The notes: generated from the sequence alone by a model not told the origin. Shown: positions 8,879 to 59,604, counted from the first letter of the stretch. The stretch: DNA of 64,000 bases from Alphaproteobacteria bacterium (GCA_965221125.1 CBDCRW010000004.1:224001-288000), one strand, 5' to 3'. Translations and numbers: made by a program.

Positions 8879-8882
8879 GACC

Positions 8883-10745: not shown

Positions 10746-10766
10746 GCTGACCGGAGGAGACGCGGC

Positions 10767-11789: not shown

Positions 11790-11803
11790 GCGGCGGGCGG
11801 TAG

Positions 11804-12432: not shown

Positions 12433-12444
12433 GGCGGCGTTCCC

Positions 12445-12473
12445 ATAGACTTAGTCTAGTAAACTTAGTCTAT
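12445..12473 (-). promoter_or_regulatory. Probable autoregulatory operator of the Phd-VapC operon
   Basis: Palindrome TAGACT-T-AGTCTA (12446-12458) and tandem variant TAAACTTAGTCTA (12460-12472), 13-40 bp upstream of the antitoxin ATG. Confidence 0.7.
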
Positions 12474-12510
12474 CAGTCCGGCCCGCGCAAGGCCCGCTTC
12501 GAGACGCCCC

Positions 12511-37741: not shown

Positions 37742-38476
37742 ATGAGCGAGACGGAGCGCGAGGCGCGGATCGATCTGGCGGCGGCCTACCGGATGGCCTG
37801 CCATCACGGGCTCAACGAGGGCGTCTGCAACCACTTCTCCCTCATGCTGCCGGGGAGCAGCGACCGCTTCCTGTTGATCGCTTACGGCACCCACTGGAGC
37901 GAGGTGCGCGCGAGCAGCCTCGTCGTCGTGGACTTCGACGGCCGCCTGATCGAGGGCGAGGGGGAGGTGGAGGAGACCGCGATCTGCCTTCACGCGCCCC
38001 TGCACAAGGCGCGGCCCGATCTCCGCTGCCTGATGCACACCCATCAGCCCAACGTGCTGGCGCTCGCCATGGTCGAGGACGGCCGCCTGGAGCCCGCGAG
38101 CCAGAACGCGCTTCGCTTCACCCATCGCATCGCCTACGACCGGGCGTATGGGGGCGTCGCCCTTGCCGAGCAGGAGGGCGACCGCGTGGCCCGCGCGATG
38201 GACGGCCACGACATCCTCTTCATGGGCAATCACGGCGTGATGGTGGGCGGCGGCGACGTCGCCAAGACCTACGACGATCTCTACTACCTGGAGCGCGCGG
38301 CGATGGTTCAGATCCTCGCCATGAGCACGGGCCGTCCGCTGCAGCCGATCCCGCCCGAGATGGTGGCGGAAACCGTGGGCCAGTTGACGCGGGACAACAG
38401 GCACCGCTACGCGCTCGAGCATTTTGCCGCGATCAAGCGGATCCTCGACCGCACCGAGCCCGATTACCGGGAGTGA
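37742..38476 (+). CDS. Class II aldolase/adducin-family protein
   Basis: RIDLAAAYR, CNHFS, MHTH, NHG and LYYLERA motifs. Confidence 0.88.
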   Translation: MSETEREARIDLAAAYRMACHHGLNEGVCNHFSLMLPGSSDRFLLIAYGTHWSEVRASSLVVVDFDGRLIEGEGEVEETAICLHAPLHKARPDLRCLMHTHQPNVLALAMVEDGRLEPASQNALRFTHRIAYDRAYGGVALAEQEGDRVARAMDGHDILFMGNHGVMVGGGDVAKTYDDLYYLERAAMVQILAMSTGRPLQPIPPEMVAETVGQLTRDNRHRYALEHFAAIKRILDRTEPDYRE

Positions 38477-38518
38477 GTTTTTCGGGCGCCCCCTCGTCAT
38501 CGAGGCGGCGCCCAGGGA

Positions 38519-39211
38519 TTACCGATCCGGCGGCGTGCCGCGGTAGCCCGCGGCGAGCACGTAGGTCTCCGCCGAATCGCTGCGGCTCGCGGGCGGCTTG
38601 ACGTTCCGCACCCGCGCGAAGGCCTGGCGGAGGCGCACCTGAAGGTCGCTGTCGCCGCCCTGGCGCAGCTTGGCGAGGAAGCACCCGCCGGGGGCGAGCA
38701 GCGGCTCCGCGAGATCGAGCGCGGTCTCGCAGAGCGCCGAGACCCGCAGCCGGTCGGTCGGCGCGTGTCCCGTGGTCGGTGCCGCCATGTCGCTCATCAC
38801 AAGGTCCGCAGGCCCGCCCAGCGCGGCGCGAATCTCGTCGAGCGCGCCCGTGCCGCAGGCGTCGATGGTGAGCACGACCACGCCCTCGATGGGCTCGATC
38901 TCCGTGGTGTCGACCGCGACCACGCGGCCGCGTCTGCCCACCTGCGCCGCCGCCACCTGGCTCCAGCCGCCTGGCGCCGCGCCAAGGTCGACCACCCGGT
39001 GTCCGGGGCGCAGGATGTCTGCCGTCTCGGCGAGGCCGATCAGCTTGTAGGCGGCGCGGGAGCGGTAGCCGGCCTCGCGCGCCGCGCGGACGTAGGGGTC
39101 GTTGAGCTGGCGCTCCAGCCAGCGGGTGGACGACGGCTTGCGGCGGCGGGCGCGCTTGAGCTTGACCGGCGCCCGTCGCTTGCCTGGGCCACCGTCGCCC
39201 CTAGCGCTCAC
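38519..39211 (-). CDS. rlmE: 23S rRNA (uridine-2'-O) methyltransferase RlmE/FtsJ
   Basis: RQLNDPYV, YRSRAAYKL, DLGAAPGGWSQ, SDMAAP and KPPASRSDSAETY motifs. Confidence 0.95.
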   Translation of the reverse strand: MSARGDGGPGKRRAPVKLKRARRRKPSSTRWLERQLNDPYVRAAREAGYRSRAAYKLIGLAETADILRPGHRVVDLGAAPGGWSQVAAAQVGRRGRVVAVDTTEIEPIEGVVVLTIDACGTGALDEIRAALGGPADLVMSDMAAPTTGHAPTDRLRVSALCETALDLAEPLLAPGGCFLAKLRQGGDSDLQVRLRQAFARVRNVKPPASRSDSAETYVLAAGYRGTPPDR

Positions 39212-40206
39212 CGGGCCGCGCTCTCCCGCCGCTCGGCGCGTGCCGCCCGCATCATCCTGAGCAGCATCCCCTCGCGGAGCCCCCGGTCGGCGACGTCGAG
39301 CTGTCCGGCCGGGCAGATGGCCATGACCGCATCGAGGATGGCGCAGCCGGCGATCATCACGTCGCCCCGCCCCGGCCCGATGCAGGGCTGGGCCGCGCGG
39401 GCGGCAAAGTCCTGATCGATGACCGTGTCGATCACGGCGCGCACGTCGTCGAACCGCAGCCGGAGGCCATCCACCCGCTGCCGGTCGTAGCGCGGGAGCC
39501 CGAGATGGATGCCCGCGATGGTGGTGACGGTGCCGGACGTGCCGAGGAGCTGAACCCTGTCGTTGCCGGCGCCCGCCGTGATGCCGTGCGCCGCGGCGAA
39601 GGGACCGATCTCGCCTTCGATCTCGGCGACCATGGCGTCATAGACCGCGCGCCCCACCCGGTCGCCGCCGTAGCGCTCGGCAAGCGAGACGACCCCGTGG
39701 GCGATCGAGGTCCACGCCGCGAGCTCGGGCCGCCGGCCGTCGTCGAGGCGCACCCATATGAGCTCGGTGCTGCCGCCCCCGATGTCGAGCACCAGCACGT
39801 GCCGCCGCGTCCCGTCGAAGAGCGGCGTGCAGCCCTCCAGGGCAAGTTGCACCTCCTCGGCTGGCGAAATGATCTCGATCGAGAGCCCGGTCTCGTCGTC
39901 GGCACGGTCGATGAACGCTTGCCGGTTCTCCGCCCGCCGGCAGGCCTCGGTGGCCACCGCGCGATAGTGGCTGACGCCGCCCCGCCGGAGCTTGCCGGCG
40001 CAGACCCGGAGCGCCCCGATGGTCCGCTCCATCGCCTGCTCGGAAAGCCGCCCCGATTGCGCCACGCCCTCGCCGAGCCGCACGATCCGCGAGAAGGCGT
40101 CGACGACGCGAAAACCCTTTCCCTTGGGCCGCGCGACGAGGAGCCGGCAGTTGTTCGTGCCGAGGTCGAGCGCGCCGAATGAAGGGCCGGGCCTTCCGTC
40201 CACCAT
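39208..40206 (-). CDS. ppx: Ppx/GppA-family phosphatase
   Basis: ALDLGTNNCRL, ATEACRRA, DIGGGSTE, GTSGTVTT and RGLREG motifs; coupled to rlmE. Confidence 0.92.
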   Translation of the reverse strand: MVDGRPGPSFGALDLGTNNCRLLVARPKGKGFRVVDAFSRIVRLGEGVAQSGRLSEQAMERTIGALRVCAGKLRRGGVSHYRAVATEACRRAENRQAFIDRADDETGLSIEIISPAEEVQLALEGCTPLFDGTRRHVLVLDIGGGSTELIWVRLDDGRRPELAAWTSIAHGVVSLAERYGGDRVGRAVYDAMVAEIEGEIGPFAAAHGITAGAGNDRVQLLGTSGTVTTIAGIHLGLPRYDRQRVDGLRLRFDDVRAVIDTVIDQDFAARAAQPCIGPGRGDVMIAGCAILDAVMAICPAGQLDVADRGLREGMLLRMMRAARAERRESAAR

Positions 40207-40378
40207 GCCTGCTCCGATTGCCGGGGCGCCCGCTCCCCGGCGCCGGCTCGGGCGCCATTACAACGCGTGCGCACGCGGCTGGCAACGCATCGGAGCACGC
40301 GGGTGCGACGCAGGCCGTGACCGGGGCGAGAGGCGCACGCTAGTCTGGCCGCATGATGACCCACGCAAGGGCCTGACC

Positions 40379-41476
40379 GTGCGGGACGCAGCTGCGCCAG
40401 TCCGTTCGCTGGACGCGCGCTACTACACCGATCCGGCCGTCTTCGAGAGAGAGCGCACGGGCCTCTTCTCCCGCACCTGGCAGTTTGCCGGGCACGAGAG
40501 CCTGCTCCGCAACGAGGGCGACTACTTTACCGTCGAGATCGCGGGCGAAAGCCTGTTCTGCGTTCGCGGTCGCGACGGGGTCCTGCGCAGCTTCTACAAC
40601 GTCTGCCAGCACCGCGCCCATCCGCTGCTGCAGGGCCGGGGCAGGGCGCGCGCCGTCGTCTGCCCCTATCACGCCTGGTCCTACGAGCTCGATGGCGCAT
40701 TCCGCAGCGGGCCGAACGTCGCGGCCGTTCCGGGCTTCGATGCGTCGGCCATCCGTCTCACGCCGGTGCGCACCGAGATTTTTCGCGGCTTCGTCTTCGT
40801 CAACCTGGACGATGACGCCCTGCCGATGGACGCGTGGTATCCCGGCGTCCGCGAGGAGCTGGCGGCCTACGTCCCCGACATCGGCGCGCTCGAGCCGCTC
40901 GAATGGCTCGAGGTGCCGGAGCGGTGCAACTGGAAGGTCTCGGTCGAGAACTATTCAGAGTGCTACCACTGCACGCTGAACCACCCGACGTTCGCGACCG
41001 GCGTCGTCCGGCCCGAGAGCTACGACATCCGGGCTTCGGAGCGGGGATACGTCCTGCGCCATGTCTCGGAGTGCCAGGACCTCGAACGGATGAGCTATCC
41101 GATCGACCCTTCGGTCCCCCACGCCGGCGCGTACCGCTCCTTCTTCCTCTGGCCCACGTTCTCGTTCCAGGTCTATCCGGGCAACCTGCTGAACACCTAC
41201 CACTGGCGAGCCGACGACGTGGACACCTGCACCGTCTGGCGCGGCTGGTACACGCCCGGCGGGGCCGAGAGCGAGACGGTCCGCCGGCTCGCCCGCCAGG
41301 ACCGCGAGACCACCGTGGCCGAGGACCTCCGCCTGGTCGAGAGCGTGGCGCAGGGCCTGAAGAGCCGCGGCTACCGTCCGGGGCCGCTCGTGCTCGACCC
41401 GAACGGCGGGCTCAACGCCGAGAACGCGATCCGGACGCTCCAGCAATGGATGCGCGAGGCGGCGGAGGAAGCGTGA
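40379..41476 (+). CDS. Rieske non-heme iron oxygenase alpha subunit (quaternary-amine oxygenase-like)
   Basis: Rieske CQHRAH...CPYHAW and mononuclear Fe site NWKVSVENYSECYHCTLNH; GTG start is approximate. Confidence 0.9.
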   Translation: MRDAAAPVRSLDARYYTDPAVFERERTGLFSRTWQFAGHESLLRNEGDYFTVEIAGESLFCVRGRDGVLRSFYNVCQHRAHPLLQGRGRARAVVCPYHAWSYELDGAFRSGPNVAAVPGFDASAIRLTPVRTEIFRGFVFVNLDDDALPMDAWYPGVREELAAYVPDIGALEPLEWLEVPERCNWKVSVENYSECYHCTLNHPTFATGVVRPESYDIRASERGYVLRHVSECQDLERMSYPIDPSVPHAGAYRSFFLWPTFSFQVYPGNLLNTYHWRADDVDTCTVWRGWYTPGGAESETVRRLARQDRETTVAEDLRLVESVAQGLKSRGYRPGPLVLDPNGGLNAENAIRTLQQWMREAAEEA

Positions 41477-41490
41477 CGGCAGGCCAAGAT

Positions 41491-41515
41491 CGGTTGACAC
41501 GGCCGCCCCTTGCCA
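41491..41515 (+). repeat. Left copy of a 25-bp direct repeat (duplicated tRNA-Gln promoter segment)
   Basis: CGGTTGACACGGCCGCCCCTTGCCA matches 42792-42816 (CGGTTGACACGGCCGCCCCATGCCA) at 24 of 25 positions. Confidence 0.85.
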
Positions 41516-41590
41516 CCCGCCGTACTCTCCGATTTGGATTCCGCTCCGTCCCGCTTGACGAACCGCGCCAACCCATCATATTGGTAAGTT

Positions 41591-41920
41591 GTGGCAGGCG
41601 GCTCCATCATTCCGTTTCCCAAGATGGGCCAGACACGTCCCACGACTCGGCAGCTGGTGCGGCACGTCCACGAGTTCTCCTCGGTGGACACCCATAACGT
41701 TCGTATGGACGAACCGCATTTCCAGCAGAGCATGAGTGAGCGGGATATCGACATGAGGTCGGTTCTGGAAGTCCTGCGGCACGGGAGAGGTATCGGAAGC
41801 CCAACGCTCGACGAATACGGAGATTGGCGGATCAGGATGGTTCGGAAGGTGGCCGGTCGCAGCGTCGAGGTGACCTTGGCGGTATGCGCAGACCACGTGG
41901 TGTGCATCACCGCCTGGTAA
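41591..41920 (+). CDS. DUF4258-like protein, putative RelE-fold toxin
   Basis: HFQQSMSERDIDMRSVLEVLRHG and C-terminal VVCITAW pattern; precedes an XRE gene; TTGACG-N16-CATATT lies just upstream of the GTG. Confidence 0.65.
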   Translation: MAGGSIIPFPKMGQTRPTTRQLVRHVHEFSSVDTHNVRMDEPHFQQSMSERDIDMRSVLEVLRHGRGIGSPTLDEYGDWRIRMVRKVAGRSVEVTLAVCADHVVCITAW

Positions 41921-41945
41921 GCGACTGACGAACGGAGGGAGACCG

Positions 41946-42440
41946 ATGGATGGCGAGAGATACCACTACCGGGAGTGCGGACTGGACGACGTTTATCTTG
42001 TGAACGGGTTCACGCGCTTCAAGTCGGCCCGCGGAACAAGCGTCGCGATAAAGAATATCGACATGCTTCACCAGGCTATCGGCACGCATCTGTGCAATCA
42101 GACTGGGGAGCTGAGCGGCAAGGAGATCAAGTTCCTGCGGCGGGAATTGATGCTGTCCCAAGCGGCGCTGGCGCACCTCGTGGGCGTGAAAGAGCAAACC
42201 GTTCACAGATGGGAGGCGGACAAGAACAGTATGCCGAGAGCAACGGAGGCTCTGTTGAGGCGTCTCTACATGGAGCAGGTCGAGAGCGACAACGATAGCC
42301 TTCGAGACCTGCTGAAGCGGATTGCCGATCTCGAAGATGCGATTCACCACCGCCAGGAATTGATCTTCAAGCTCAAGACCACGAGGCGGAGAAAGACTTC
42401 AGCCGGGCAACAGCCGGTGCAATGGGCATTGGCTGCTTAG
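41946..42440 (+). CDS. XRE/MqsA-like HTH antitoxin
   Basis: YHYRECGLDDVYLVNGF N-terminus and GKEIKFLRRELMLSQAALAHLVGVKEQTVHRWE HTH; GGAGG RBS. Confidence 0.85.
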   Translation: MDGERYHYRECGLDDVYLVNGFTRFKSARGTSVAIKNIDMLHQAIGTHLCNQTGELSGKEIKFLRRELMLSQAALAHLVGVKEQTVHRWEADKNSMPRATEALLRRLYMEQVESDNDSLRDLLKRIADLEDAIHHRQELIFKLKTTRRRKTSAGQQPVQWALAA

Positions 42441-42706
42441 CCCGCATTTCTCACCAGGGTCATGGTCTGCGCGGCGTTGTCCGGCCGTCAGGCAAGGAGA
42501 GGCGCGCAGCGCGATGTGGTGCATCGGGCAAGCGCATCGACGCAGCATGTCGGCCGGACAGCGTCGCCCTTCGGGTCGCGCCCAGGCGCCCGCCCGCGGC
42601 GTCGCGGGCCTCAACCGTATTCCCTGATACGCTTTTCGGCCCGCTCCTGGCGGATCGAACGCCTGGACGCGACGCAGGCCGTGACCCTGGTGATAAATGC
42701 GGGCTA
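42438..42706. mobile_element. MITE-like non-autonomous element with 34-bp terminal inverted repeats
   Basis: Left TAGCCCGCATTTCTCACCAGGGTCATGGTCTGCG (42438-42471) versus reverse complement of 42673-42706 (TAGCCCGCATTTATCACCAGGGTCACGGCCTGCG): 31 of 34 identical. Terminal TA could be a target duplication; no transposase inside. Confidence 0.75.
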
Positions 42707-42791
42707 GGGACGCCAGAAGCTCCCCTGCCAAGCCAGGCGGCGATGAAGTCGTCGACAGCTCAAATTGCGCTATTGTGCTGCCTACCTGCGC

Positions 42792-42822
42792 CGGTTGACA
42801 CGGCCGCCCCATGCCATAAATT
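42792..42822 (+). promoter_or_regulatory. sigma70 promoter of tRNA-Gln (includes the right copy of the 25-bp direct repeat)
   Basis: TTGACA (42795-42800), 16-bp spacer, TAAATT (42817-42822), 16 nt before the tRNA. Confidence 0.7.
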
Positions 42823-42838
42823 TCGGGCCACAGCCTGC

Positions 42839-42912
42839 TGGGGGATAGTCTAACGGTAGGACAGCGGACTCTGACTCCGTAGGTCCAGGTTCGAATCCTG
42901 GTCCCCCAGCCA
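42839..42912 (+). tRNA. tRNA-Gln (anticodon CTG)
   Basis: Acceptor stem TGGGGGA/TCCCCCA, anticodon arm GCGGA-CTCTGAC-TCCGT, T-loop GGTTCGAATCC, encoded CCA. Confidence 0.97.
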
Positions 42913-42975
42913 CCTCTCCCGCCCGGCACGGCCCGATGGCCCGGCCGGGCGACGTGATTCTGGCGAGCGCCCAAA

Positions 42976-44073
42976 TCAGGCGTGGGTGCGGGTCTTATCC
43001 GGGTCGTAGAACGGAATCTGCGAGACCGTGGCCTGGCACTGCATGGTCTCGCTTTCCAGCATCAGCTCCGTGCCCTCGGCGGCCGCGTTCGGCGAGACGT
43101 GGCAGAGCGCGAGTGACTTCTGGAGCCGGTGCGACCAGGCCGGGCTGTTGACGATGCCGACCTTGTCGCCGTCGAGGGTGAGCGTGGCGCCCGCCTCCGC
43201 CGCGTCGTCGTGATCGGCGACGATGCCGACCATCAGTATCTTCTCCTGCCCCTCGCGGGCGAACACCGCGTCCCTGCCGCGAAAATCGCCCTTCTTGCGC
43301 GAGACCGACCAGCCCATGGTCACCTCCCAGGGCGTGTTCTCCTCGGTCATGTCGTAGGGATAGAAGAGGAGCGCCGCCTCCACCCTGATCTTGTCGAGGC
43401 AGGTGAAGGAGCAGGGAACGATGCCGGCGCCCGCGCCGGTCGCGAGGATCTCCTCCCAGAGCGGCACCACGTGCTCGGCGGTGGCGAAGATCTCGTAGCC
43501 GCGCTCGCCGGAATAGCCGGTCCGCGAGATCAGCACCGGGCGGCCGAAGAGCGTGGTCTCCGCCTGGTGGAAGTAGCCGAGCGCGGGCAGGTCGATGGGC
43601 GTGTGCGCATCGAGGAAGCCCACCGATGCCGGCCCCTGCAGCGAGATGTCGTGCAGGTCGTCGTCGAAGACGATGCTCGCGTCGCGGCCCGCCGCGCTCT
43701 CCTGCAGCTTCTCCATGCAGGCGCCTGCGCCGTGGACGACGAGGAAGTCGTCGTCGCCCAGGGTGAAGATGATGGCATCGTCGCAGATGCCGCCGTCATC
43801 CTGGAGGATCGGCCCGTAGGCCGAGCGCCCGATGGGGATCCGGGTCATGTCGCGGGTGATGATGTGATCGCAGACGGCGGCGGCGTCGCTGCCGCGCACG
43901 CGGACCTTCTTGAGGCCTGAGACGTCGAAGAGGCCGGCGCGCTCCCGCACCGCGTCGTGCTCGTCGCAGGGGTCCGAGTCGTAGGTCCATGGCGCGCCCA
44001 TGCCGTTCCAGTCCTCGAGGTTGGAGCCGAGCGCCCGGTGGTGCGCGGCCAGCGCCGATTCACGTGTGCTCAT
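42976..44073 (-). CDS. GcvT-family (THF-binding) aminomethyltransferase-like protein
   Basis: GLFDVSG, DDAII, SLQGP, SRTGYSGERGYEI, RVEA and PFYDP motifs; the N-terminus HRALGSNLEDWNGMG recalls DmmD-type methylamine-linked proteins. Confidence 0.9.
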   Translation of the reverse strand: MSTRESALAAHHRALGSNLEDWNGMGAPWTYDSDPCDEHDAVRERAGLFDVSGLKKVRVRGSDAAAVCDHIITRDMTRIPIGRSAYGPILQDDGGICDDAIIFTLGDDDFLVVHGAGACMEKLQESAAGRDASIVFDDDLHDISLQGPASVGFLDAHTPIDLPALGYFHQAETTLFGRPVLISRTGYSGERGYEIFATAEHVVPLWEEILATGAGAGIVPCSFTCLDKIRVEAALLFYPYDMTEENTPWEVTMGWSVSRKKGDFRGRDAVFAREGQEKILMVGIVADHDDAAEAGATLTLDGDKVGIVNSPAWSHRLQKSLALCHVSPNAAAEGTELMLESETMQCQATVSQIPFYDPDKTRTHA

Positions 44074-44125
44074 GCTCCCTCTCCCTTGTCGTATCCCTCA
44101 GTCGCCGGGCAGGGTTGCTCCCGCT

Positions 44126-46423
<2,298 letters not shown>

Positions 46424-46505
46424 CTACGGCGCAGGATAGCATAGTGGACGCGGGGCCGGTAGACGCTCGACTATCAGTGGCGGCATCAATTTACCTAACA
46501 CTCGA

Positions 46506-46555
46506 TTGGTAGAACCAAAATGGTCGCATGGCGATACTCTGATTGGTCCAACCAA
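46506..46555. promoter_or_regulatory. Two GntR/FadR-type operator palindromes in the divergent tmd/ABC promoter region
   Basis: TTGGT-AGA-ACCAA (46506-46518) and TTGGT-CCA-ACCAA (46543-46555) match the TGGT-N3-ACCA FadR-subfamily consensus. Confidence 0.72.
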
Positions 46556-46726
46556 CAACTCGTATTTGTGCCCTAATTTGTCGCGCGGTCTTGACTCGGA
46601 TCAATGACACCGAATACGATTTTGTCTGACGATTTCGCGACAGGAGCGTAATCGATCTGGCTGCCTCGGCAGATCGCGCCGCGCCACGGCGCTCCGCGCA
46701 GCCGCACCCAACAGGGAGACCAAGTC

Positions 46727-47998
46727 ATGGGCAAGAAGGGACTTACACGCAGGCAATTCACCGGCACCGCCGCAGCCGCGGCCGGCGCCGTTGCCGCGTC
46801 GTCGTTCGGCGCCCCCTATGTTGCACAGGGCGCCGAGAAGGTCGTCAAGCTCGGCTTTCTGGGGCCGCTCACCGGTGAAGTGGCGGGCTGGGCCCTGCCG
46901 GGCCGCAATGCTTGCCTGATCTGGGCCGACCAGGTCAACGCGGGCGGCGGCATCAAGATCGGCGACGACAACTACATGGTCGAGATCGTCTCCTACGACA
47001 ACGAGTACCTGGCGGACAAGTCGTTGATCGGTGCGAAGAAGCTGGTGCTCGAGGACGACGTCAAGTTGGTCTTGATGCTGGGCGGCACCGACGCGCCGGC
47101 GGCCGTGCAGTTCTTCACCAAGCAGAAGATGCTGTCGACCACCCTGCTGCCGAGCGATCTCACCCCCGACACGCTCTATCACCTGGCGCCCGCCGAGGTG
47201 CATCCGCTCTACAACGTGACCGGCGTCGAGTGGCTCGCTGAGAACCGGCCGGAGCTCAAGACCGCTGCGATCTGCGCCCAGGACGACGAGCTCGGGTGGC
47301 CCTCGGTCGCGACCTATCTCGCTGCGTTCGAGGCGGCAGGCATCGACGTCGTCTACAACAAGTACTTCGACATCGGGACCACCGACTTCGCGCCGGTGGT
47401 GACCGCGATGCTGGCCGAGAATCCTGACATCGTCTGCCTCGACACGGCCTATCCGGACTTCGTCAACCTGCTCTGCGAGCAACTCTTCCTGCAGGACTAC
47501 AAGGGGCAGATCATCTCCTGCACCCTCGATTTCTACGGGCGGATTATCGAGAAAACGAGCACGGAGTTCCTCGAGGGTCTGATCTTCCAGTTCCCGGATT
47601 TCGACGACCCGGCGATGAACGAGCCGCACATTAACTTCGAAAACCCCAACGAGTTCTTCGTCAACTACAACGAGCGCTTCCCCGACGCCTGGAGCGCGGT
47701 GACCTGGGAATATCCCGCCATCGCCGAGATGTGGAGACTGGCGGCCGAGAAGGCCGGCAGCGTCGAGCCGATGGCCGTGTTCGCGTCGCTGAAGGAAGGC
47801 GGGCGCGGCCCCCACGTCTTCGGCGACGCCGACTGGTGGGGCGAAGAGCTGTGGGGCATCGACAACGCCCTGGTCGGCAACTGGCCGGTGGTGCAGATCC
47901 AGAACGGCAAGGCCACGATCGTCGAGTACCGCAACATCATCGACTGGTGGAACAAGCACGGCGAGCTGTTGAAGAAGCATACCGCGGAGCAAGGCTGA
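46727..47998 (+). CDS. LIV/HAAT-family ABC substrate-binding protein with Tat signal
   Basis: TRRQF twin-arginine signal, KLGFLGPLTG, VNAGGGI and TDFAPVV motifs. Confidence 0.9.
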   Translation: MGKKGLTRRQFTGTAAAAAGAVAASSFGAPYVAQGAEKVVKLGFLGPLTGEVAGWALPGRNACLIWADQVNAGGGIKIGDDNYMVEIVSYDNEYLADKSLIGAKKLVLEDDVKLVLMLGGTDAPAAVQFFTKQKMLSTTLLPSDLTPDTLYHLAPAEVHPLYNVTGVEWLAENRPELKTAAICAQDDELGWPSVATYLAAFEAAGIDVVYNKYFDIGTTDFAPVVTAMLAENPDIVCLDTAYPDFVNLLCEQLFLQDYKGQIISCTLDFYGRIIEKTSTEFLEGLIFQFPDFDDPAMNEPHINFENPNEFFVNYNERFPDAWSAVTWEYPAIAEMWRLAAEKAGSVEPMAVFASLKEGGRGPHVFGDADWWGEELWGIDNALVGNWPVVQIQNGKATIVEYRNIIDWWNKHGELLKKHTAEQG

Positions 47999-48070
47999 CC
48001 CTGCAGCCTGCGGTAACCACCACGTTATGACGCGGCGGGTCCGTCGTCAGCACGGACCGCCGCACAGGCG

Positions 48071-48103
48071 AGCCGGGGCAGTGCAGCCCCGGCTTTTCCT
48101 TTG
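48071..48103 (+). terminator. Intrinsic terminator/stabilising hairpin after the binding-protein gene
   Basis: Stem AGCCGGGGC/GCCCCGGCT with a 6-nt loop followed by TTTCCTTT. Confidence 0.65.
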
Positions 48104-48203
48104 TAGTATTCGTGACCGGGCGAGTGGATGCACCGCTCGGCCCGGCGCGGCTTTTCCGCCGGCAGGCCGCGGCTTGATACGTCGCTGATCCGCACGAGGG
48201 ACC

Positions 48204-49079
48204 GTGGATACTGTCGTTCAGACGCTGGTGAACGCTCTGATGCAGAGCAGCTTCGTCGCGCTGATGGCGGTGGGCCTGGTTCTCATCTTCGGCGTCATGC
48301 GGGTCATCAACTTCGCCCACGGCGAGTTCTACATGGCCGGCGCCTACGTCGTGTTCTGGCTCTACGCCCAGCACGAGCTGCCCTTCTTCGCTGCCGTGGT
48401 TGCGGCCATGATCATCGTCGGCATCATCGGACTGATCATCGAGCAGCTTCTGTTCAAGCCGATGCGGGACAACCCGCTCGGCGGGCTGATCATGTCCATC
48501 GGCGTGCTCTTCATCCTCCAGGTGCTCGCCGCGGTCATTTTCGGCGTCGGCCTGATGAAGCACATCCCGCCGCTCTATCCCGGGGCAACGCCGCTCTTCG
48601 GCATGGACGGCGTCTCGGTGCCGTGGCAGCGGCTCGTCGCCTTCGGCATTGCGGTCGTGCTACTGATCGGGTTCTGGCTCTTTCTCAAGCGCACACGGCT
48701 CGGCTGGGCGCTCCGCGCCTGTGCGCAGGACCGCGAGGCGGCGGCGCTCCAGGGCATGTCGATCAACAAGCTGGCGCTGCTGGCCATGGGGCTCGGCGCC
48801 GGCATGGCGGGCGCCGCCGGCGCGATCATGGCGCCGCTGGTCCGCGTCTATCCCTATATCGGCGGCCCGGTGATCGTGACCGCCTTTATCGTCATCGTCG
48901 TGGGCGGCATCGGCAGCCTCGAAGGCGCGGTGCTGGCCGCGGTGCTCTACACCTTCTTCCACACCTTCGTCGCAACCTACCTCGACGGGACCATCGCGAG
49001 CATCCTCGGCCTGCTGCTGATGCTGCTCGTGCTCATCGTGCGGCCCGCCGGACTGCTGGGTAAAGGTGAGAAGGTCTAA
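48204..49079 (+). CDS. LivH-type ABC permease
   Basis: GLVLIFGVMRVINFAHGEFYM, LRACAQDREAAALQG and VVGGIGS motifs. Confidence 0.92.
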   Translation: MDTVVQTLVNALMQSSFVALMAVGLVLIFGVMRVINFAHGEFYMAGAYVVFWLYAQHELPFFAAVVAAMIIVGIIGLIIEQLLFKPMRDNPLGGLIMSIGVLFILQVLAAVIFGVGLMKHIPPLYPGATPLFGMDGVSVPWQRLVAFGIAVVLLIGFWLFLKRTRLGWALRACAQDREAAALQGMSINKLALLAMGLGAGMAGAAGAIMAPLVRVYPYIGGPVIVTAFIVIVVGGIGSLEGAVLAAVLYTFFHTFVATYLDGTIASILGLLLMLLVLIVRPAGLLGKGEKV

Positions 49080-50109
49080 CCGCCTCATCGCGACAGGCGG
49101 CGGGCTGGCCCTCGTGCTGGCCGTCTTCTGCGCGCTGCCGTTCCTGGTCGCGATCTACCGCATCGACATCCTGATCTTCCTGCTGATCAACGTGATCCTG
49201 GCGATCAGCTACCGGTTCCTCACGCTTGCCGGCGAGTTCTCGCTCGCCCACGTGGTGATGATGGGGGTGGGCGCCTACGGCAGCGCGCTCGCGACCAAGG
49301 AGGCCGGCCTCTCGGTCTGGCTGGCGGCGCCGCTGGCGGCGGCCTTCACGGGCCTGCTGGCGCTGGTGCTCGCCTTCCCGCTGTTCCGGATGAAGGGCTT
49401 CTACTTCCTGATCGGCTCCTTCGCCGCCGGCGAGGCGATCCGGCTGACCTGGAACCGCTTCCGCGATCCCTTCGGCGGCCCCGGCGGCCTGGTGTTCATC
49501 CCCTCGCCCGAAATTCCGCTCCCCGTCCTCGGCATGTTCGACGTCGCGGCGGACCCCATCGCCTACTACTTCCTGTGCCTCGCGATCGTGGTCATCACGA
49601 TCTTCATCTTCTACCGGCTGGAGCACTCCCGCTTCGGCCTCACGCTGCACGCGATCCACTGGCAGGACGTGCTCGCCGAATCGGTCGGCGTGCACATCTG
49701 GTGGTACAAGACCTTCGCCCTGGTGCTCGCGTCCGGCTTCGCCGGGCTCGCGGGCGGGCTCCTCGGCCACTACCTCGGCACCGTCAACCCGGTCCAGTTC
49801 AACCTGCACATCATGCTGTTCGTGCTGGTATGGGTGATCGTGGGCGGCACGCGGACCATCGCCGGCCCCATCATCGGCGTCATCGTGCTGACGGTCGTCG
49901 ACCAGGGCCTGCGCGGCTTCGACGAATGGCGGCCGCTGTTCTACGGCGCGATCCTGATCCTCACCGTGATGTTCCTGCCCGACGGGCTGGAGAGCCTGCC
50001 GCGTCGCCTGAAGGAGTGGTACGAGCTGGCGCGGCACGGGCGCCACCCGCAGGTCAGCGACGACGAAGAACCACCGGAGTCAGATAAACCGCCGCCTCGA
50101 GACGCCTGA
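49066..50109 (+). CDS. LivM-type ABC permease
   Basis: GEFSLAH, RMKGFYF, GGPGG, IVGG...GP and FLPDGL motifs. Confidence 0.92.
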   Translation: MRRSNRLIATGGGLALVLAVFCALPFLVAIYRIDILIFLLINVILAISYRFLTLAGEFSLAHVVMMGVGAYGSALATKEAGLSVWLAAPLAAAFTGLLALVLAFPLFRMKGFYFLIGSFAAGEAIRLTWNRFRDPFGGPGGLVFIPSPEIPLPVLGMFDVAADPIAYYFLCLAIVVITIFIFYRLEHSRFGLTLHAIHWQDVLAESVGVHIWWYKTFALVLASGFAGLAGGLLGHYLGTVNPVQFNLHIMLFVLVWVIVGGTRTIAGPIIGVIVLTVVDQGLRGFDEWRPLFYGAILILTVMFLPDGLESLPRRLKEWYELARHGRHPQVSDDEEPPESDKPPPRDA

Positions 50110-50758
50110 GATCGCTCATCGTCTGGTCCTCCGATGCGGCCGCGAGGCGATCTGGTCCGAAGCTCACCGGGTCGCGCTCGATCGCCTCGGCCCGCTGTCG
50201 CGCGTCCTGAGCCGCCGTCTCGTCTCCCGCTTGTGCCTTCAGCGCCGCGAGGACGCGGCAGATCGGCGCCTGGTCGCTGTCGCGCCAGCCGAGGCCCGAC
50301 AACCGCAGCTCTTGCGCTTCCTCCAGAGCGGCCGCCGGATTGCGCGCGAGGTGGGCACCGCCGGCGAGCGCCGCCCCCCGGCCGGCACCGAGAAGCTTGG
50401 CGAACTCGACACGGGCGAGCGCGTCGTAGCGCCGCCGATGCTTCGCCTCCAGCCGAAGGTGGAAGCCCGAGCTGCGCGCGCGCTGGGGGAGCGCCATGCG
50501 CGCGATCCAGGCCTCTGCTGCCTCCCAAGCACGAAGCGCCCGGCGGAAGGCCCGGCGCGCGCTCGCGGCGTTGCCTTGCGCGGCGTGGCAGAGAGCGAGG
50601 TGGGTCCGGCTTGCGGCCCGGCGCGGGTCGTCCGTATCGAAGGCCCGGCCGATGGCGGCGGCGGAGCGCCAGGCGGCGTACGCCTCCTCGATACGGCCCT
50701 CCTGAAAGGCCGCGAGGCCCTCCAGCGTGCGTGCTTCCCAGCGCCGGTCGGCCGACAT
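50054..50758 (-). CDS. Hypothetical helical (TPR-like) protein
   Basis: Ala-rich helical repeats (DPRRAASRTHLA); lies 3 nt after the LytTR gene and overlaps the livM 3' end convergently. Confidence 0.6.
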   Translation of the reverse strand: MSADRRWEARTLEGLAAFQEGRIEEAYAAWRSAAAIGRAFDTDDPRRAASRTHLALCHAAQGNAASARRAFRRALRAWEAAEAWIARMALPQRARSSGFHLRLEAKHRRRYDALARVEFAKLLGAGRGAALAGGAHLARNPAAALEEAQELRLSGLGWRDSDQAPICRVLAALKAQAGDETAAQDARQRAEAIERDPVSFGPDRLAAASEDQTMSDLRRLEAAVYLTPVVLRRR

Positions 50759-50761
50759 CGT

Positions 50762-51568
50762 TCAGACCAGGCCGGCGGCGCGGACGGCGGCCATGTAGGT
50801 GCGGCTTACCGGCACCTCGTGTCCGCCGGTGAGCCGCAGCGTCGTGCGGCCGTCCCGCCGCGCAGCCCCCTGGACGTGCTGGCGCGCGACCCAGTAGGAG
50901 CGATGCACCCGGAGCCCGCCTGCGTCGTCGAGCTCGGCGACGGCGTCGACGAAGCGCATGAGCACCAGGGTCGAGCCCGCCGTGGTGACTGCTTCGACGT
51001 AGTGGTCGGCGGTCTTGAGATAGACGAGGTCGCGGCCGAGTTTTTCGGGCAGGCGGTCGAGGAAACGCGCCCCGGGCGCAGGGCCGGCGGTTGACGCCTC
51101 GGCCGGATCGGCCACGGCGTCGGCGCTTCCCGCCGTCAGCCGGCGCCGGACTTCGATGACGGAGACGACGGACATCCCGATCACCAGCATCAGCACGGCC
51201 ACCGAGAGATAAATCGTGGGGACGGAGACTCCGGTGGTGTAGCCGGGCCGGAAGAGCGCTTCAGCGCCGTACACGAGCCCGGTACCGGGCGCAGCCGCGA
51301 GCGGTGCCGCGCACGCGGCCACGAGGACGCGCCGGCGCATCGATTCGCCGCCGACGGTGACCAGCGCCGCCATCATGATGCCGCCGCAGACGAGCCAGTT
51401 GCCGCCCATCGCCACCGCCCAGTAGCCGAGTCGGCCGCCCAGCCCGAGGGAATCGTAGGTGCCGAAGGGGCCGATGAAGGCGAAGAGCAGCACCAGGCCG
51501 ACGAGCGCCGCCCCCTGACCGGCCAGCGAGCGGCGCAGTTCGCGAAGCGTGAACGGCGATTCCTGCAA
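50762..51568 (-). CDS. Membrane-bound LytTR-family transcriptional regulator
   Basis: Four N-terminal TM segments (GPFGT) and C-terminal LytTR domain (DHYV, VHRSYWV, VPVSR). Confidence 0.88.
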   Translation of the reverse strand: MQESPFTLRELRRSLAGQGAALVGLVLLFAFIGPFGTYDSLGLGGRLGYWAVAMGGNWLVCGGIMMAALVTVGGESMRRRVLVAACAAPLAAAPGTGLVYGAEALFRPGYTTGVSVPTIYLSVAVLMLVIGMSVVSVIEVRRRLTAGSADAVADPAEASTAGPAPGARFLDRLPEKLGRDLVYLKTADHYVEAVTTAGSTLVLMRFVDAVAELDDAGGLRVHRSYWVARQHVQGAARRDGRTTLRLTGGHEVPVSRTYMAAVRAAGLV

Positions 51569-51668
51569 CTCGCGAATAATCCCGTGGCGTTTGCGTATCG
51601 GACGATGACGCGCGGCGTCGGCCTGCTCACCCTGCCCCGGTCAGCCAACCCCACGCTCAGGAGAATAT

Positions 51669-52151
51669 GTGATGACCATTCGAACCGCATCCATCAAGGG
51701 CTTCGCTCTGGCCGCCGCGATCGCCTGCACGGCCTCGCTCGCGTCCGGGGCTGCGGCGGCCGATCTCGAGGTCCGTGTCGACGGCCTGCGCTCGTCCGAC
51801 GGCGACGTGCGCGTGGCACTCCACCGGCAGGTATCGGACGACAGCTTCCCCGGCGATGCCGGCGTGGTCGGCGCGTCCTTCCGTCGGGCCGCCGAGGGTA
51901 CCGTGCGCTTCGTCTTCGCGGACGTGACGCCCGGTGCCTACGCGGTGGCCGCGTTCCACGACGCCGATGGCGACGGCGCGCTCAACCAGAACCTCGTCGG
52001 CATGCCGACCGAGGGCCACGGCTTCTCCAACGGCGCGCGCGGCTTCATGGGCCCGCCCAGCTTCGAGGACGCGGCCGTGACCGTGGACGAGAGCGAGGCT
52101 GTGGTCTCCATCACCGTCTCCATCGACTATCCGATCGGGGCGCAGCAATGA
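51669..52151 (+). CDS. Secreted DUF2141-family protein
   Basis: Signal peptide, PGAYAVAAFHDADGDG, GMPTEGHGFSN and GPPSF motifs. Confidence 0.85.
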   Translation: MMTIRTASIKGFALAAAIACTASLASGAAAADLEVRVDGLRSSDGDVRVALHRQVSDDSFPGDAGVVGASFRRAAEGTVRFVFADVTPGAYAVAAFHDADGDGALNQNLVGMPTEGHGFSNGARGFMGPPSFEDAAVTVDESEAVVSITVSIDYPIGAQQ

Positions 52152-53656
52152 CCGGCGCACCCTCCCGCCGGGCGGTGTTGCAGGCGCTCGGCGCTCTGCC
52201 GGTCCTCGTGGCGGCCGGCAGGGCAGGGGCGGCCAGCAGCGATGCGGCCGAACCCGGCCTCTCCGCCGAACAGCGCATGCTGGCCTTCGCCACTGCGCCG
52301 GCCGAGACCCTTGCCGCGCCGCTCGCGACGCGTGCCGGCCGTCTGCCACTCGATCTCACGGGCGTTCTCTGGCGCAACGGCCCGGCGGAGCACGAGCGCT
52401 TCGGCCATCGCTACGGCCACTGGTTCGACGGCGACGGCATGGTGCAGGCCTTCACCTTCTCGGGCGACGGCGTGAGCCACCGCGCCCGCATCCTGGAGAC
52501 GCCGAAGCGCCGCCGCGAGACGGAAGCGGGCAGGCGCCTCCTGCCCACGTTCGCCACGCTGCCTCCGGAGGTCGAGCCGATCCTCTCGCCGGACGACATG
52601 AACGCCGCCAACACCTCCGTGCTCGCCCACGGCGGGCGGCTCATGGCGCTCTGGGAAGGGGGCTCGGCGCTCGCGGTCGATCCCGAGACGCTGGACGCCG
52701 ACGGCTTCGTCTCCTGGCGCGCGGACCTCGCAGGCCTGCCCTTCTCGGCCCATCCCAAGGTGGAGGCCGACGGCACCTGCTGGAACATCGGCTGCGCCAC
52801 GGCGCCCCGGCCGATGCTGCTCTTCTACCGCATCGACCCGCAAGGCCGGCTCGCCGCCTTCAACGCGCTCCCCCTCGACCCCCTCGGCATGGTGCACGAC
52901 TACGTCGTGACCCGGCGCCACCTGGTGCTTGTCGTACCCCCCTTCGTGGTGGAGCCGGAGCGTTTCGCGGCCGGTCCCATCAGCTTTCTCGACGCCCACG
53001 TCTGGCGGCCGGAGCTCGGCACCCGCGTGATCGTGGTGGAGAAGGAGACCCTCACCCCCATTCGCCGCTACGCGCTGCCGGCGGGCTTCCACTTCCACCA
53101 CGGCAACGGGTGGGAGGAGGCGGACGGCACCATTCACCTCGACCTCTGCCGGGCGGCCGACCCGATGTTCGCGGTCCACGACCTCCGCGCGGTCATGGCG
53201 GGGGACTGGCGCTTCCCGTCGGCGCAGCCGCACTACAGCCGCATGGTGCTCGGGCCCGGCAGTGCGGCCACGGTCGAGCAGGTGGTGCCGGCGGAGGCGG
53301 ACTTTCCCCGCATAGACCCGCGTCGCACGGGGCTGCGGCACCGTGCGCTCTTCGCGCTCACCGGCTCGGGCGACGGCGGCTGGCCGCTCTCGCGCATCGA
53401 CCGGATCGACCCCGACCGAGGTTCCGTCGACGGCTGGTCCTACCCGCGTCACGTGATCCCGGAGGAGCACGTGTTCGTGCCGCGCGGCGGGACGGAAGGC
53501 GACGGCTGGCTGGTGGGTCCCTCCCTCGACCTGGAGCGCCGCGCTGCCGGGCTCAGCGTCTTCGACGCCCGGCACCTCGCCGACGGGCCGCTCTGGCAAG
53601 GCCTCCTGCCCTACCCGCTCCCCCTCGCTCTGCACGGGACCTTCGTCCCGGCGTAA
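52148..53656 (+). CDS. Carotenoid cleavage oxygenase (RPE65 family) with Tat signal
   Basis: SRRAVL signal, RNGP, HWFDGDGM, four His ligands (SAHPK, VHDY, FHHGN, LHGTF) and EEHVFVP; ATGA overlap with DUF2141. Confidence 0.9.
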   Translation: MTGAPSRRAVLQALGALPVLVAAGRAGAASSDAAEPGLSAEQRMLAFATAPAETLAAPLATRAGRLPLDLTGVLWRNGPAEHERFGHRYGHWFDGDGMVQAFTFSGDGVSHRARILETPKRRRETEAGRRLLPTFATLPPEVEPILSPDDMNAANTSVLAHGGRLMALWEGGSALAVDPETLDADGFVSWRADLAGLPFSAHPKVEADGTCWNIGCATAPRPMLLFYRIDPQGRLAAFNALPLDPLGMVHDYVVTRRHLVLVVPPFVVEPERFAAGPISFLDAHVWRPELGTRVIVVEKETLTPIRRYALPAGFHFHHGNGWEEADGTIHLDLCRAADPMFAVHDLRAVMAGDWRFPSAQPHYSRMVLGPGSAATVEQVVPAEADFPRIDPRRTGLRHRALFALTGSGDGGWPLSRIDRIDPDRGSVDGWSYPRHVIPEEHVFVPRGGTEGDGWLVGPSLDLERRAAGLSVFDARHLADGPLWQGLLPYPLPLALHGTFVPA

Positions 53657-57856: not shown

Positions 57857-59604
57857 CCGCCCCTGCCGCAGGGCCCGGCCTGGCGGCGCGCGGCGGTGGC
57901 GGCCTCGTCGACCTCGGGCGGGTCGCCGGTCAGCACGACGCCGAAGCGCGTCTCCGCTTCCTCCGCCGTGTAGTAGCCGCGCATGACGTCGCGCGCGACC
58001 GCTGCAGGATCGCGTGCCCAGGCATCGCCGTAACCGCCTCCGCCCGGCGTGGACACGCGCACGGTATCGCCGGGGCGGAGCGGGATTTCCTGGTCCTTGG
58101 AGAGGTGCGGCGGCTTGTAGCGGGAGCCGTCGACGCGGATCACGTCCACGCTGTTGACGCCGCCGGGCGCGCCGCCGAGCGCGCCGTTGGGCCCAGCACG
58201 CCCGTGGTCCATCACCATGGAGGCGGAGGCCGCGCCCCGCCGGAGCGTACACGCGTAGGTGACGCCGAAGCCGCCGCGCCAGCGCCCGGCGCCGCCCGAG
58301 CCCTCGTGCAAGGAGTATTCCTGGAAGAGCACCGGGTACTTTTGCTCCATCACCTCGATGGGCTGTGACTTGGAGATGCCGATGGTGGAGCAGCCGTTGG
58401 TGAGACCGTCGCCCGATGGCGAGCCGCCGTAGCCGCCGCCGGTGAAGAGGTACATCACGAAATCGCGCCCGCGCGCGGGGTCGGCGCCGCCCACGGCGAA
58501 GTTGCCCGACGTGCCGGCGGGCGCCGCGAAGAGGCGGTCCGGTATTGCCTGGGCGAGCGCGTCGAACACGGCTTCGGCGATGCGCTGGCTCACCTCCGCC
58601 GCGCAGCCCGAGACCGGGCGCGGGTACTCGGCATGGAGGAAGGTGCCCCTGGGCTCCGTGATGTGCAGCGGCTCGAACATGCCGGCGTTGATCGGCACGT
58701 CGGGGAAGATGTGGCGGATCGCGAGGTAGACCGAGGACTTGGTGGTCGCCGCCACGCTGTTCATCGGCCCGGCGCAGGGCGGGCTCGAGTTCGCCATGTC
58801 GAAGTGCAGCTCGCTGCCGTCCACCCGAATACGCATGTCGATGGTGAGCGGCTCGTTCACCACACCGTCTGAATCGACCTGGGCGAGGCCGCGGTAGGTG
58901 CCGTCCGGAATGGTCTCGATCTTGGCCCGCATCTGCCGTGCGGCGCGCTGGCGCATCTCCCGGATCACGTCTTCGACCAGGGCCTGGCCGTACTTGTCGA
59001 GCAGCGCCGTCATCCGCCGCGCGCCCACCAGCAGCGCCGCCGACTGCGCCTCGATGTCGCCGATGCGCTGCTCGGGCACGCGGATGTTGGAGAGGATGAT
59101 CGAGAGGATCTCCTCGTCGATCGTCCCCTCCTTGTAGAGCTTGACCGGCGGGAAGCGCAGGCCCTCCTGCACCACCTCGGTGGCGCGCGCCGAGAAGCCG
59201 CCCGGCACCATGCCGCCGGTGTCCGGCCAGTGGCCGGTATTCGACAGCCAGGCGAAGTGCGCGCCCTTGTAGAAGAAGGGGAGCGCGAAGCGCACGTCCA
59301 TCAGGTGCGTGCCGCCGAGGTAGGGGTCGTTGACGGCGAAGATGTCGCCCTCGCGCACGTCGGGCTTTGTGGCGATCAGGTGCTCGGTCGAGAACTGCAT
59401 GGTGCCGACGAAGACCGGCAGCCCCAGCTCGCCTTGCGCGATGAGCTTGCCGTCCTCCTTCGCGTAGATGCCGTCCGAGCGGTCCAGGCCCTCGGAGATC
59501 ACGGGGCTAAAGGCCGAGCGCACGAAGGCGAGATCCATCTCGTTGCAGACCTGCTGCAGGCCGCTCTGCACCACGCCGAGGGTGATGGGATCGAGCGCGC
59601 TCAT
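57853..59604 (-). CDS. Hydantoinase B/oxoprolinase-family subunit (pair 3)
   Basis: MSALDPITL start, NDPYLGGTHLMD, HWPDTGG and TPGGGGYG; ATGA overlap with the A subunit. Confidence 0.93.
   Translation of the reverse strand: MSALDPITLGVVQSGLQQVCNEMDLAFVRSAFSPVISEGLDRSDGIYAKEDGKLIAQGELGLPVFVGTMQFSTEHLIATKPDVREGDIFAVNDPYLGGTHLMDVRFALPFFYKGAHFAWLSNTGHWPDTGGMVPGGFSARATEVVQEGLRFPPVKLYKEGTIDEEILSIILSNIRVPEQRIGDIEAQSAALLVGARRMTALLDKYGQALVEDVIREMRQRAARQMRAKIETIPDGTYRGLAQVDSDGVVNEPLTIDMRIRVDGSELHFDMANSSPPCAGPMNSVAATTKSSVYLAIRHIFPDVPINAGMFEPLHITEPRGTFLHAEYPRPVSGCAAEVSQRIAEAVFDALAQAIPDRLFAAPAGTSGNFAVGGADPARGRDFVMYLFTGGGYGGSPSGDGLTNGCSTIGISKSQPIEVMEQKYPVLFQEYSLHEGSGGAGRWRGGFGVTYACTLRRGAASASMVMDHGRAGPNGALGGAPGGVNSVDVIRVDGSRYKPPHLSKDQEIPLRPGDTVRVSTPGGGGYGDAWARDPAAVARDVMRGYYTAEEAETRFGVVLTGDPPEVDEAATAARRQAGPCGRGG

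Follow-up and report, generated by a model that had tools for sequence, protein, structure and literature searches.

A trimethylamine dehydrogenase gene beside genes for a DmmD-like folate protein and a LIV-family importer, candidate half of a two-locus trimethylamine module in an alphaproteobacterium

A stretch of 64,000 nt from an Alphaproteobacteria bacterium (GCA_965221125.1 CBDCRW010000004.1:224001-288000; hereafter the window, in which coordinates count from the first letter) carries a gene for a predicted trimethylamine dehydrogenase (TMADH) together with genes for a protein of the GcvT fold and, divergently, for a transporter of the LIV family. With a probability of about 0.6, we read the window as one half of a two-locus module for the uptake and oxidation of trimethylamine (TMA), made up of TMADH, a DmmD-like folate partner, a LIV-family importer and a dedicated electron transfer flavoprotein (ETF). 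TMADH is a textbook enzyme, with dimethylamine and free formaldehyde as its stated products, and the uptake of TMA by bacteria is, to our knowledge, poorly defined. What appears new is that the TMADH-ETF pair, itself classical, is combined with a folate partner resembling DmmD and with a LIV-family importer encoded divergently, the whole being split over two loci. An initial annotation had already proposed that the dehydrogenase, the GcvT-fold protein and the importer form a methylamine module, and this reading is supported in that it passes every computational test that was run.

The G+C content of the window is about 70%, and G+C content at third codon positions picks one reading per locus. 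All genes listed in the initial annotation were recovered in the same places. On the minus strand, the gene for a stand-alone, DmmD-like GcvT-fold protein of 365 amino acids (42976-44073; Pfam GCV_T 230.6 bits and GCV_T_C 53.1 bits) lies 52 bp (44074-44125) from that of TMADH (44126-46318; 730 amino acids). A divergent control region of 408 bp (46319-46726) separates the latter from three genes on the plus strand, which encode a LIV-family binding protein with a Tat signal (46727-47998; 423 amino acids; Peripla_BP_6 148.9 bits), the LivH/UrtB-like ABC permease 1 (48204-49079; 291 amino acids; BPD_transp_2 135 bits) and the LivM/UrtC-like ABC permease 2 (49066-50109; 347 amino acids; BPD_transp_2 137 bits). 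The arrangement is more than chance, because it recurs in related loci; the comparison set holds 83 full-length TMADH homologues, taken from 75 related loci (designated by L numbers) and the window.

The gene at 44126-46318 is predicted to encode a TMADH with a pocket of the TMA type and not of the dimethylamine type, bearing flavin mononucleotide (FMN) on a covalent cysteine, a 4Fe-4S cluster and ADP-binding domains. Its ATG start (MARDPKYD) matches residue 1 of the solved enzyme, the open frame extending to a TTG at 46387, and the product matches the Pfam families Oxidored_FMN, Pyr_redox_2 and OYE-like_second_a-b. A search of solved chains returned an end-to-end alignment with the TMADH of strain W3A1 (1djn) at 958 bits, whereas histamine dehydrogenases scored lower (555 bits for 6de6 and 528 bits for 3k30), which places the enzyme with TMADH as initially annotated. 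The motifs on which that annotation had relied were all located in the translation: VPHC at 28, TEY at 59, VYGAH at 169, AEWGED at 265, SRWE at 356 and, for the cluster, CIGCNMC at 348. All nine pocket and catalytic positions checked are kept, namely the equivalents of C30, Y60, S74, W105, Y169, H172, W264, D267 and W355, whose roles we take to be those described for TMADH and dimethylamine dehydrogenase. C31 in VPHC aligns with Cys30 of the W3A1 enzyme, the site of covalent FMN, and is invariant in 43 homologues; the triad Tyr169-His172-Asp267 is present as Y170, H173 and D270, and the 4Fe-4S cysteines as C348, C351, C354 and C367. Pocket residues and the four cluster cysteines are invariant or nearly so in the 43 close homologues. 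Tyr, Ser and Trp stand at the equivalents of positions 60, 74 and 105, as in TMADH and as had been noted for Tyr60, in contrast to Gln60, Thr74 and Phe105, which we take to be the pattern of dimethylamine dehydrogenases.

Read as a signature, the nine residues of the window enzyme (CYSWYHWDW) are identical to those of the W3A1 enzyme. Among the 83 homologues, which have 31 different signatures, CYSWYHWDW is found in 18 enzymes (16 complete and two N-terminally truncated, from 17 loci and the window) that fall into two subclades with support of 0.998-1.00, joined with support of 0.71 and 0.83 in two trees. The W3A1 and Hyphomicrobium enzymes stand outside these trees, and bit scores to the solved chain were used instead: same-pocket representatives scored highest against 1djn (958 for the window and 974 for L026), followed by neighbouring groups at 938 (CYH...), 830 (CAL...) and 780 (CYSWSDWDF). 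At 57.7% identity to the CYSWYHWDW enzyme of Paracoccus aminovorans, the window enzyme is, judged from its sequence, a separate lineage with the same pocket as the TMADHs of W3A1 and P. aminovorans. It shares with the W3A1 enzyme (1djn, 2tmd and, with ETF, 1o94) the full-length alignment, the three-domain architecture, the covalent-FMN cysteine, the aromatic bowl, the Tyr-His-Asp triad and the 4Fe-4S cysteines, and a dedicated ETF is encoded in the window genome as well; it differs in its lineage (958 bits to 1djn against 1315 for P. aminovorans) and in that ETF-beta of the window genome is fused to a membrane Fe-S/CCG protein.

Head-to-tail arrays of four to six TMADH-family paralogues were seen in some metagenome-assembled genomes (L017 3840-14504, L020 3174-15335 and L039 1249-14504), their members being 55-66% identical to the window TMADH and having different pocket signatures. 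These arrays suggest a large radiation of amine dehydrogenases.

As to the protein encoded downstream of TMADH, alignment and tree side with DmmD and the C-terminal domain of the trimethylamine N-oxide (TMAO) demethylase Tdm, and not with true GcvT. In NCBIfam it matches the C-terminal half of Tdm best (243 bits), and it falls under both curated GcvT cut-offs (203.8 against 235.85 for TIGR00528 and 241.1 against 300 for PRK00389); the best solved match is likewise the Tdm C-domain, at 184 bits against 163.5 for the GcvT of Bacillus. Motifs which we take to form the folate site align with those of Tdm and T-proteins (DD at 98-99, SRTGYSGERGYE in the GYSGERGYE stretch, and R230/E232 of the R..E motif) and do not vary among 51 homologues. 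A tree of 32 sequences puts the TMADH-linked GcvT-like proteins in a clade of their own (support 0.99), the next neighbour of which is a protein of Leisingera whose gene comes after one of the MttB family (58.6% identity to the window protein), followed by a DmmD-type protein of Acinetobacter (45.2%), whose gene follows those of dmmA, a PDR/VanB-oxidoreductase and a DUF3445 protein, and then by the Tdm C-domain of the window genome itself (34.8%). The larger clade formed by all of these (support 1.00) excludes seven DMGDH-like C-domains and the GcvT candidate of the window genome, which is 28.3% identical and encoded at C6:616607-617695 (C2, C6 and C7 being other contigs of this genome, which is 92% complete).

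Common to the window protein and to DmmD of the DmmDABC system or the Tdm C-domain are thus the GcvT fold, the conserved Asp pair, the GYxGExGYE motif, the clade and the fact of being encoded with an enzyme that releases a one-carbon (C1) unit from a methylated amine. Besides the distance in sequence (45% identity to the Acinetobacter DmmD type and 35% to the Tdm C-domain of the same genome), the partner differs, being here an O2-independent flavin/Fe-S dehydrogenase and not a monooxygenase or Tdm. Because of this homology and of the gene context, a DmmD-like role beside TMADH, in the formation of methylene-tetrahydrofolate (methylene-THF), would be the most economical reading of the protein. 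In the passages available from two papers, DmmD is described as a GcvT-domain protein that is thought to be dispensable for demethylation itself and that may turn formaldehyde into methylene-THF, a role that is there itself hypothetical (PMC4543880, PMC5520151). At 10430-13077 of a plasmid of Leisingera sp. NJS204 (L085), a gene of the MttB-like trimethylamine-methyltransferase family is followed, 14 bp downstream, by the gene for the GcvT-like protein that is 58.6% identical to that of the window.

The neighbourhood conservation that was proposed as a check of the module was found for both arms. A GcvT homologue is encoded within 5 kb of 15 of the 18 same-pocket enzymes, and for 12 of the 18 its gene lies on the same strand at 17-170 bp from that of TMADH; two of the misses (L028 and L014) are on contigs that end 4.3 and 2.5 kb downstream. 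Of the 65 other paralogues, six are accompanied by a GcvT homologue at a distance of up to 5 kb, and these six are all among the 21 sequences nearest to the TMADH group, and the count is zero for the 44 paralogues of the remaining clades, in which the Tyr/His and Trp pattern is missing. A binding-protein gene lies within 10 kb of 12 of the 18 same-pocket enzymes. Of 18 other genomes of the genus, 14 also have an orthologue of the binding protein with at least 81% identity; these genomes are kin and not independent, so that this count shows only the stability of the gene within the genus.

Of the four-gene module initially proposed, the genes are present and co-conserved; as a set they are incomplete, the ATPase and ETF genes lying elsewhere in the genome, with no ABC ATPase or ETF gene among the annotated open reading frames of the window. 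Related loci show what such a set contains. In L013, L024 and L026, the gene for TMADH is followed by those for a fusion protein of 1007-1055 amino acids with 4Fe-4S dicluster, CCG and ETF-beta domains, for ETF-alpha and for GcvT, in this order; in L013 and L024 the series goes on with genes for the binding protein and two permeases, ATPase genes being nearby, and in L009, L010 and L015 two genes for LivG/LivF-like ATPases adjoin a gene for a TPR protein. In the window genome, C7:725374-730995 encodes in succession two ATPases of 250 and 235 amino acids (79% and 83% identical to the ATPases of the L009 cluster), a membrane Fe-S/CCG/ETF-beta fusion protein of 1051 amino acids (62% identical to that of L024, with two CxxCxxCxxxC motifs and, at the N terminus, four or more hydrophobic segments) and an ETF-alpha of 321 amino acids (65% identical to that of L024). 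With these four partner genes of the relatives found together on C7, the module is, by gene content, split between two loci in the window genome. ETF is the established electron acceptor of TMADH, as in the structure entry 1o94.

A plasmid search with the window TMADH gave best matches of at most 61% identity, of which the locus of P. aminovorans alone was followed up. Plasmid IV of P. aminovorans JCM 7685 (NZ_LN832562.1) encodes a CYSWYHWDW paralogue with 1315 bits to 1djn, nearer to the W3A1 enzyme than any other match in this analysis. The genes are arranged in the order ABC substrate-binding protein, FCD regulator, hypothetical protein, FAD-dependent oxidoreductase (the TMADH), heterodisulfide-reductase-related Fe-S protein, hypothetical protein, ETF-beta, ETF-alpha, aminomethyltransferase family protein and DMT transporter, all annotated in generic terms only. 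The GcvT-like protein is 55% identical to that of the window and the binding protein, encoded upstream, 54%. The operon thus has in one neighbourhood the identical pocket, both ETF subunits, the Fe-S/CCG protein, the GcvT-like protein and a LIV-family binding protein, in contrast to the two contigs of the window genome; it also differs in that the Fe-S protein and ETF-beta are encoded by separate genes and in that the binding-protein gene stands beside an FCD-family regulator gene and has no adjacent permease genes. The plasmid carries two TMADH paralogues, 65.7% identical to each other, the second of which (L084 14133-16340; signature CQTFYHWDW) shows the Gln/Thr/Phe combination that we take for that of dimethylamine dehydrogenases and adjoins a cupin gene. 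A 2026 preprint on P. aminovorans BM109 also reports two TMADH genes and, in the text available, discusses formaldehyde dehydrogenase and glutathione routes only, with 0 occurrences each of 'aminomethyltransferase', 'tetrahydrofolate' and 'electron transfer flavoprotein' (10.64898/2026.04.15.718846).

The binding protein encoded across the control region has an N-terminal TRRQF motif, of which R8 and R9 are the same in all of 53 homologues, and many aromatic and acidic residues are invariant in its family. An AlphaFold2 model (pLDDT 88.1, pTM 0.85) has the type I periplasmic binding fold. The solved folds nearest to it in Foldseek were an uncharacterised Tat-signal protein, UrtA urea binders, binders of aromatic acids and LivK, at 15-20% identity, the UrtA matches having TM-scores of 0.70-0.72 at 16-18% identity. 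Reading a ligand from these neighbours (urea, amino acids or aromatic acids) was considered and dropped, since an identity of 15-20% does not tell the ligand. In a low-confidence alignment with LivK (37 bits), Trp18 is kept as W55, and the positions which we take to contact the amino-acid backbone (Ser79, Thr102, Tyr202 and Glu226) are replaced by Gly, Leu, Ala and Thr; the alignment suggests that the protein lacks the amino-acid contact residues of LivK. With the LivJ/LivK and UrtA systems the window protein shares the type I fold (TM-scores near 0.7 with structures of the UrtA and LivK types), and with LIV/Urt ABC transporters in general the system shares two BPD_transp_2 permeases and LivG/LivF-like ATPases. 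It differs in being 15-20% identical to every solved relative and in scoring far under the curated cut-offs (23.9 against 477 for LivJ, PRK15404, and 23.2 against 492.75 for UrtA). Permease 1, with eight hydrophobic segments, reaches 190.3 bits against a UrtB cut-off of 250.3, and permease 2 reaches 127 bits for LivM, under its cut-off. Public names of the binding-protein homologues are generic only, for example branched-chain amino acid transport system substrate-binding protein, and it is from gene context that TMA emerges as a candidate ligand.

Two copies of the palindrome TTGGTNNNACCAA, at 46506-46518 and 46543-46555, lie in the divergent intergenic region. They are the only two matches in the 64 kb (0 in 100 shuffles) and are kept in L006, L007, L008 and L011, and not in L009. 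A promoter scan placed a promoter-like site at 46591-46620(+), 5' of the binding-protein gene, and a pattern scan a terminator-like hairpin at 48070-48095(+), between this gene and that of permease 1, with a stem of 10 pairs, eight of them G-C; both are consensus matches only. An Rfam scan of 38000-53000 returned tRNA only and no riboswitch.

Contigs from four RNA libraries, which come from three studies and carry the labels sponge, marine or plain metagenome, hint at expression of the module genes. The whole binding-protein gene is covered by single contigs, 46644-48003 (with nine differences) and 46659-48023; contigs start at 46643-46659, and the sequence adjoins library adapters at 46643 and 48023. 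The TMADH and GcvT genes are covered in pieces, one contig spanning the gap between them by joining 44074 to 44127, with 36 letters on its shorter side. The stretch 50372-50645 is free of such contigs, which carries no meaning.

In the module as we picture it, the Tat-exported binding protein and the two permeases would import TMA, powered by the LivG/LivF-like ATPases encoded on the other contig. TMADH would then demethylate TMA oxidatively, by its established chemistry and without O2, to dimethylamine and a C1 unit. Electrons would leave through the dedicated ETF, with its beta subunit fused to the membrane Fe-S/CCG protein, for the quinone pool, a route proposed because of gene linkage and of the known TMADH-ETF partnership. 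The GcvT-fold protein, presumably co-transcribed with TMADH, may load the formaldehyde or iminium carbon on tetrahydrofolate (THF) to give 5,10-methylene-THF, as homology to DmmD and the Tdm C-domain would have it, and this would limit free formaldehyde and feed C1 metabolism. Both arms are probably under the control of a regulator that recognises the two copies of TTGGTNNNACCAA in the divergent control region.

The role of the GcvT-fold protein is where this proposal meets its most serious competitor. The protein could be a general or downstream C1 handler, serving dimethylamine or another demethylation step in the way of DmmD beside the monooxygenase, with no functional or physical tie specific to TMADH and linked to it only through shared regulation. 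Members of the same subfamily do stand beside other demethylating enzymes, in Acinetobacter with dmmA, the PDR/VanB oxidoreductase and DUF3445 and in Leisingera with the MttB-family protein; moreover, the copy of L024 clusters with the DmmD type and L018 is without a GcvT gene. However, the close same-strand adjacency in 12 of the 18 same-pocket enzymes, the position of the gene inside the P. aminovorans TMADH-ETF operon and the separate clade of TMADH-linked copies make a general handler unlikely. Still less probable is that the physiological substrate is another tertiary or secondary amine, with the importer carrying that compound or a precursor of it. The diversity of pocket signatures over many clades, the identity of only some 58% to the P. 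aminovorans TMADH and the occurrence of the binding-protein family beside a paralogue with another pocket leave room for such a substrate; the agreement of all nine checked residues with the W3A1 enzyme, and the same partners accompanying the P. aminovorans enzyme with its 1315 bits to 1djn, speak for TMA. The generic names of public homologues (aminomethyltransferase, binding protein for branched-chain amino acids) would fit a merely incidental adjacency of a glycine-cleavage T protein and a branched-chain amino acid importer. We regard this as very improbable, given a GcvT-fold protein that scores under both GcvT cut-offs and falls outside the clade of the genome's own GcvT candidate (28% identity), a GcvT gene co-conserved with TMADH, and a binding protein that has 23.9 bits against a LivJ cut-off of 477 and appears to lack the LivK contact residues.

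Against the module as proposed, several observations have to be counted. The folate partner is not obligatory: L018, which extends 10 kb to either side of the enzyme gene, has no GcvT gene, and up to about 13 kb from the CQTFYHWDW paralogue of P. aminovorans there is neither an ETF gene nor one for a GcvT-like protein or a binding protein. The binding protein may not be specific for TMA, since in L010 a distance of 214 bp separates the gene for a member of its family from that of a paralogue whose pocket differs. The window genome encodes a glutathione-dependent formaldehyde dehydrogenase (609 bits, above cut-off), and therefore free formaldehyde could be handled without THF; in the same 92% complete genome, no PurU scored above cut-off and no dimethylamine-oxidising enzyme was recognised. 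Finally, the RNA-library contigs may hold DNA, and their depth cannot rank genes.

A further-reaching extension of the two-locus module is possible and, in our estimation, doubtful. In it, the DmmD-like protein would dock on TMADH so that no free formaldehyde is released, the binding protein would be the first dedicated bacterial TMA receptor, and both would form with the membrane-anchored ETF oxidase a complete O2-independent system of TMA scavenging, common among Alphaproteobacteria that are marine or associated with sponges, and the wider radiation of TMADH-like amine dehydrogenases would be served by the same folate partner.

The initial annotation had called the module undescribed. In open-access full text, subscription journals being outside the scope, no paper was found that couples trimethylamine dehydrogenase with aminomethyltransferase or GcvT, and papers joining it with tetrahydrofolate or folate were unrelated by title. 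Titles listed in an open-access search for a TMA-binding protein included archaeal MttP and transporters of TMAO, dimethylsulfoniopropionate and ergothioneine, with none among those listed that describes a bacterial TMA-binding protein, and a survey of SAR11 binding proteins mentions, in its available text, TMAO only. On the other hand, the same partnership occurs in cultivated P. aminovorans under generic annotation, and we regard the undescribed status of the combination of TMADH, folate partner and importer as provisional. If true, a conserved folate partner would revise what is assumed to become of the C1 unit in the route through the dehydrogenase and would align this route with Tdm, DmmDABC and the enzymes acting on sarcosine and dimethylglycine. 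A binding protein specific for TMA, if true, would provide a marker gene and a sensor scaffold for the cycling of methylated amines in marine and host-associated communities. Both ideas are directly testable in P. aminovorans, which is cultivable and carries the same gene set.

Other genes for methylated-amine and C1 metabolism were searched for in the window genome. Tdm (1169 bits) and a GmaS-type enzyme (656 bits) are above their cut-offs, and open frames of about 800-1100 amino acids contain several further matches to the GcvT domain. No paralogue of the Gln/Thr/Phe type was seen among the matches to the TMADH query, of which the second-best match alone was checked, and PF11927 (DmmC/HODM-like) had no match in this genome or in any control genome. 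The FMO-like family gave one weak partial match of 45 bits, which was not taken as Tmm. The GmaS-type model is also matched, in two pieces, by a possibly broken glutamine-synthetase-like gene at C2:84762-88558. Some 2 kb from this gene is a homologue, at 40% identity, of the FCD regulator encoded beside the P. aminovorans TMADH operon.

On its downstream side, the module is bounded by a tRNA-Gln(CTG) gene (42839-42912, plus strand; ARAGORN; 69.1 bits for Rfam tRNA), a conserved boundary in that the same tRNA is found 3' of the GcvT gene in L006-L009, L011 and L012. Between this tRNA and ppx, an insertion contains, at 40352-41476, a gene for a Rieske GbcA-like oxygenase and, at 41946-42440, one for an MqsA-like protein of the HTH antitoxin type. 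A link of the Rieske gene with the module was rejected: in L007, ppx follows directly after the tRNA, and the gene therefore belongs to an insertion specific to the lineage. C7 encodes another GbcA-like Rieske oxygenase (L080 9162-10238; 29% identity to that of the window), its gene being convergent with that of ETF-alpha.

At the other end, a gene for a TPR protein of 234 amino acids (50054-50758, minus strand; TPR_12) is convergent with that of permease 2, the two overlapping by 56 bp. Its homologues lie beside permease 2 in L006-L011, L015, L016 and L019 and near TMADH in L013, L025 and L070, and in L010 the gene follows two ATPase genes; the TPR protein travels with the transporter. Its matches in the ESM Atlas are generic TPR clusters only. 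The adjacent gene (50762-51568, minus strand) encodes a membrane-anchored LytTR DNA-binding protein of 268 amino acids (LytTR 57.8 bits; four hydrophobic segments), which is possibly a regulator. Copies 77-82% identical occur in L006, L007, L008 and L011, and in this lineage the gene occupies the position of the two ATPase genes in relatives.

Farther away, the window contains two A and two B genes of the hydantoinase/oxoprolinase family, at 6812-10745, 20624-22441 and 59601-61640, with an adjacent A-B pair at 6812-10745 only.

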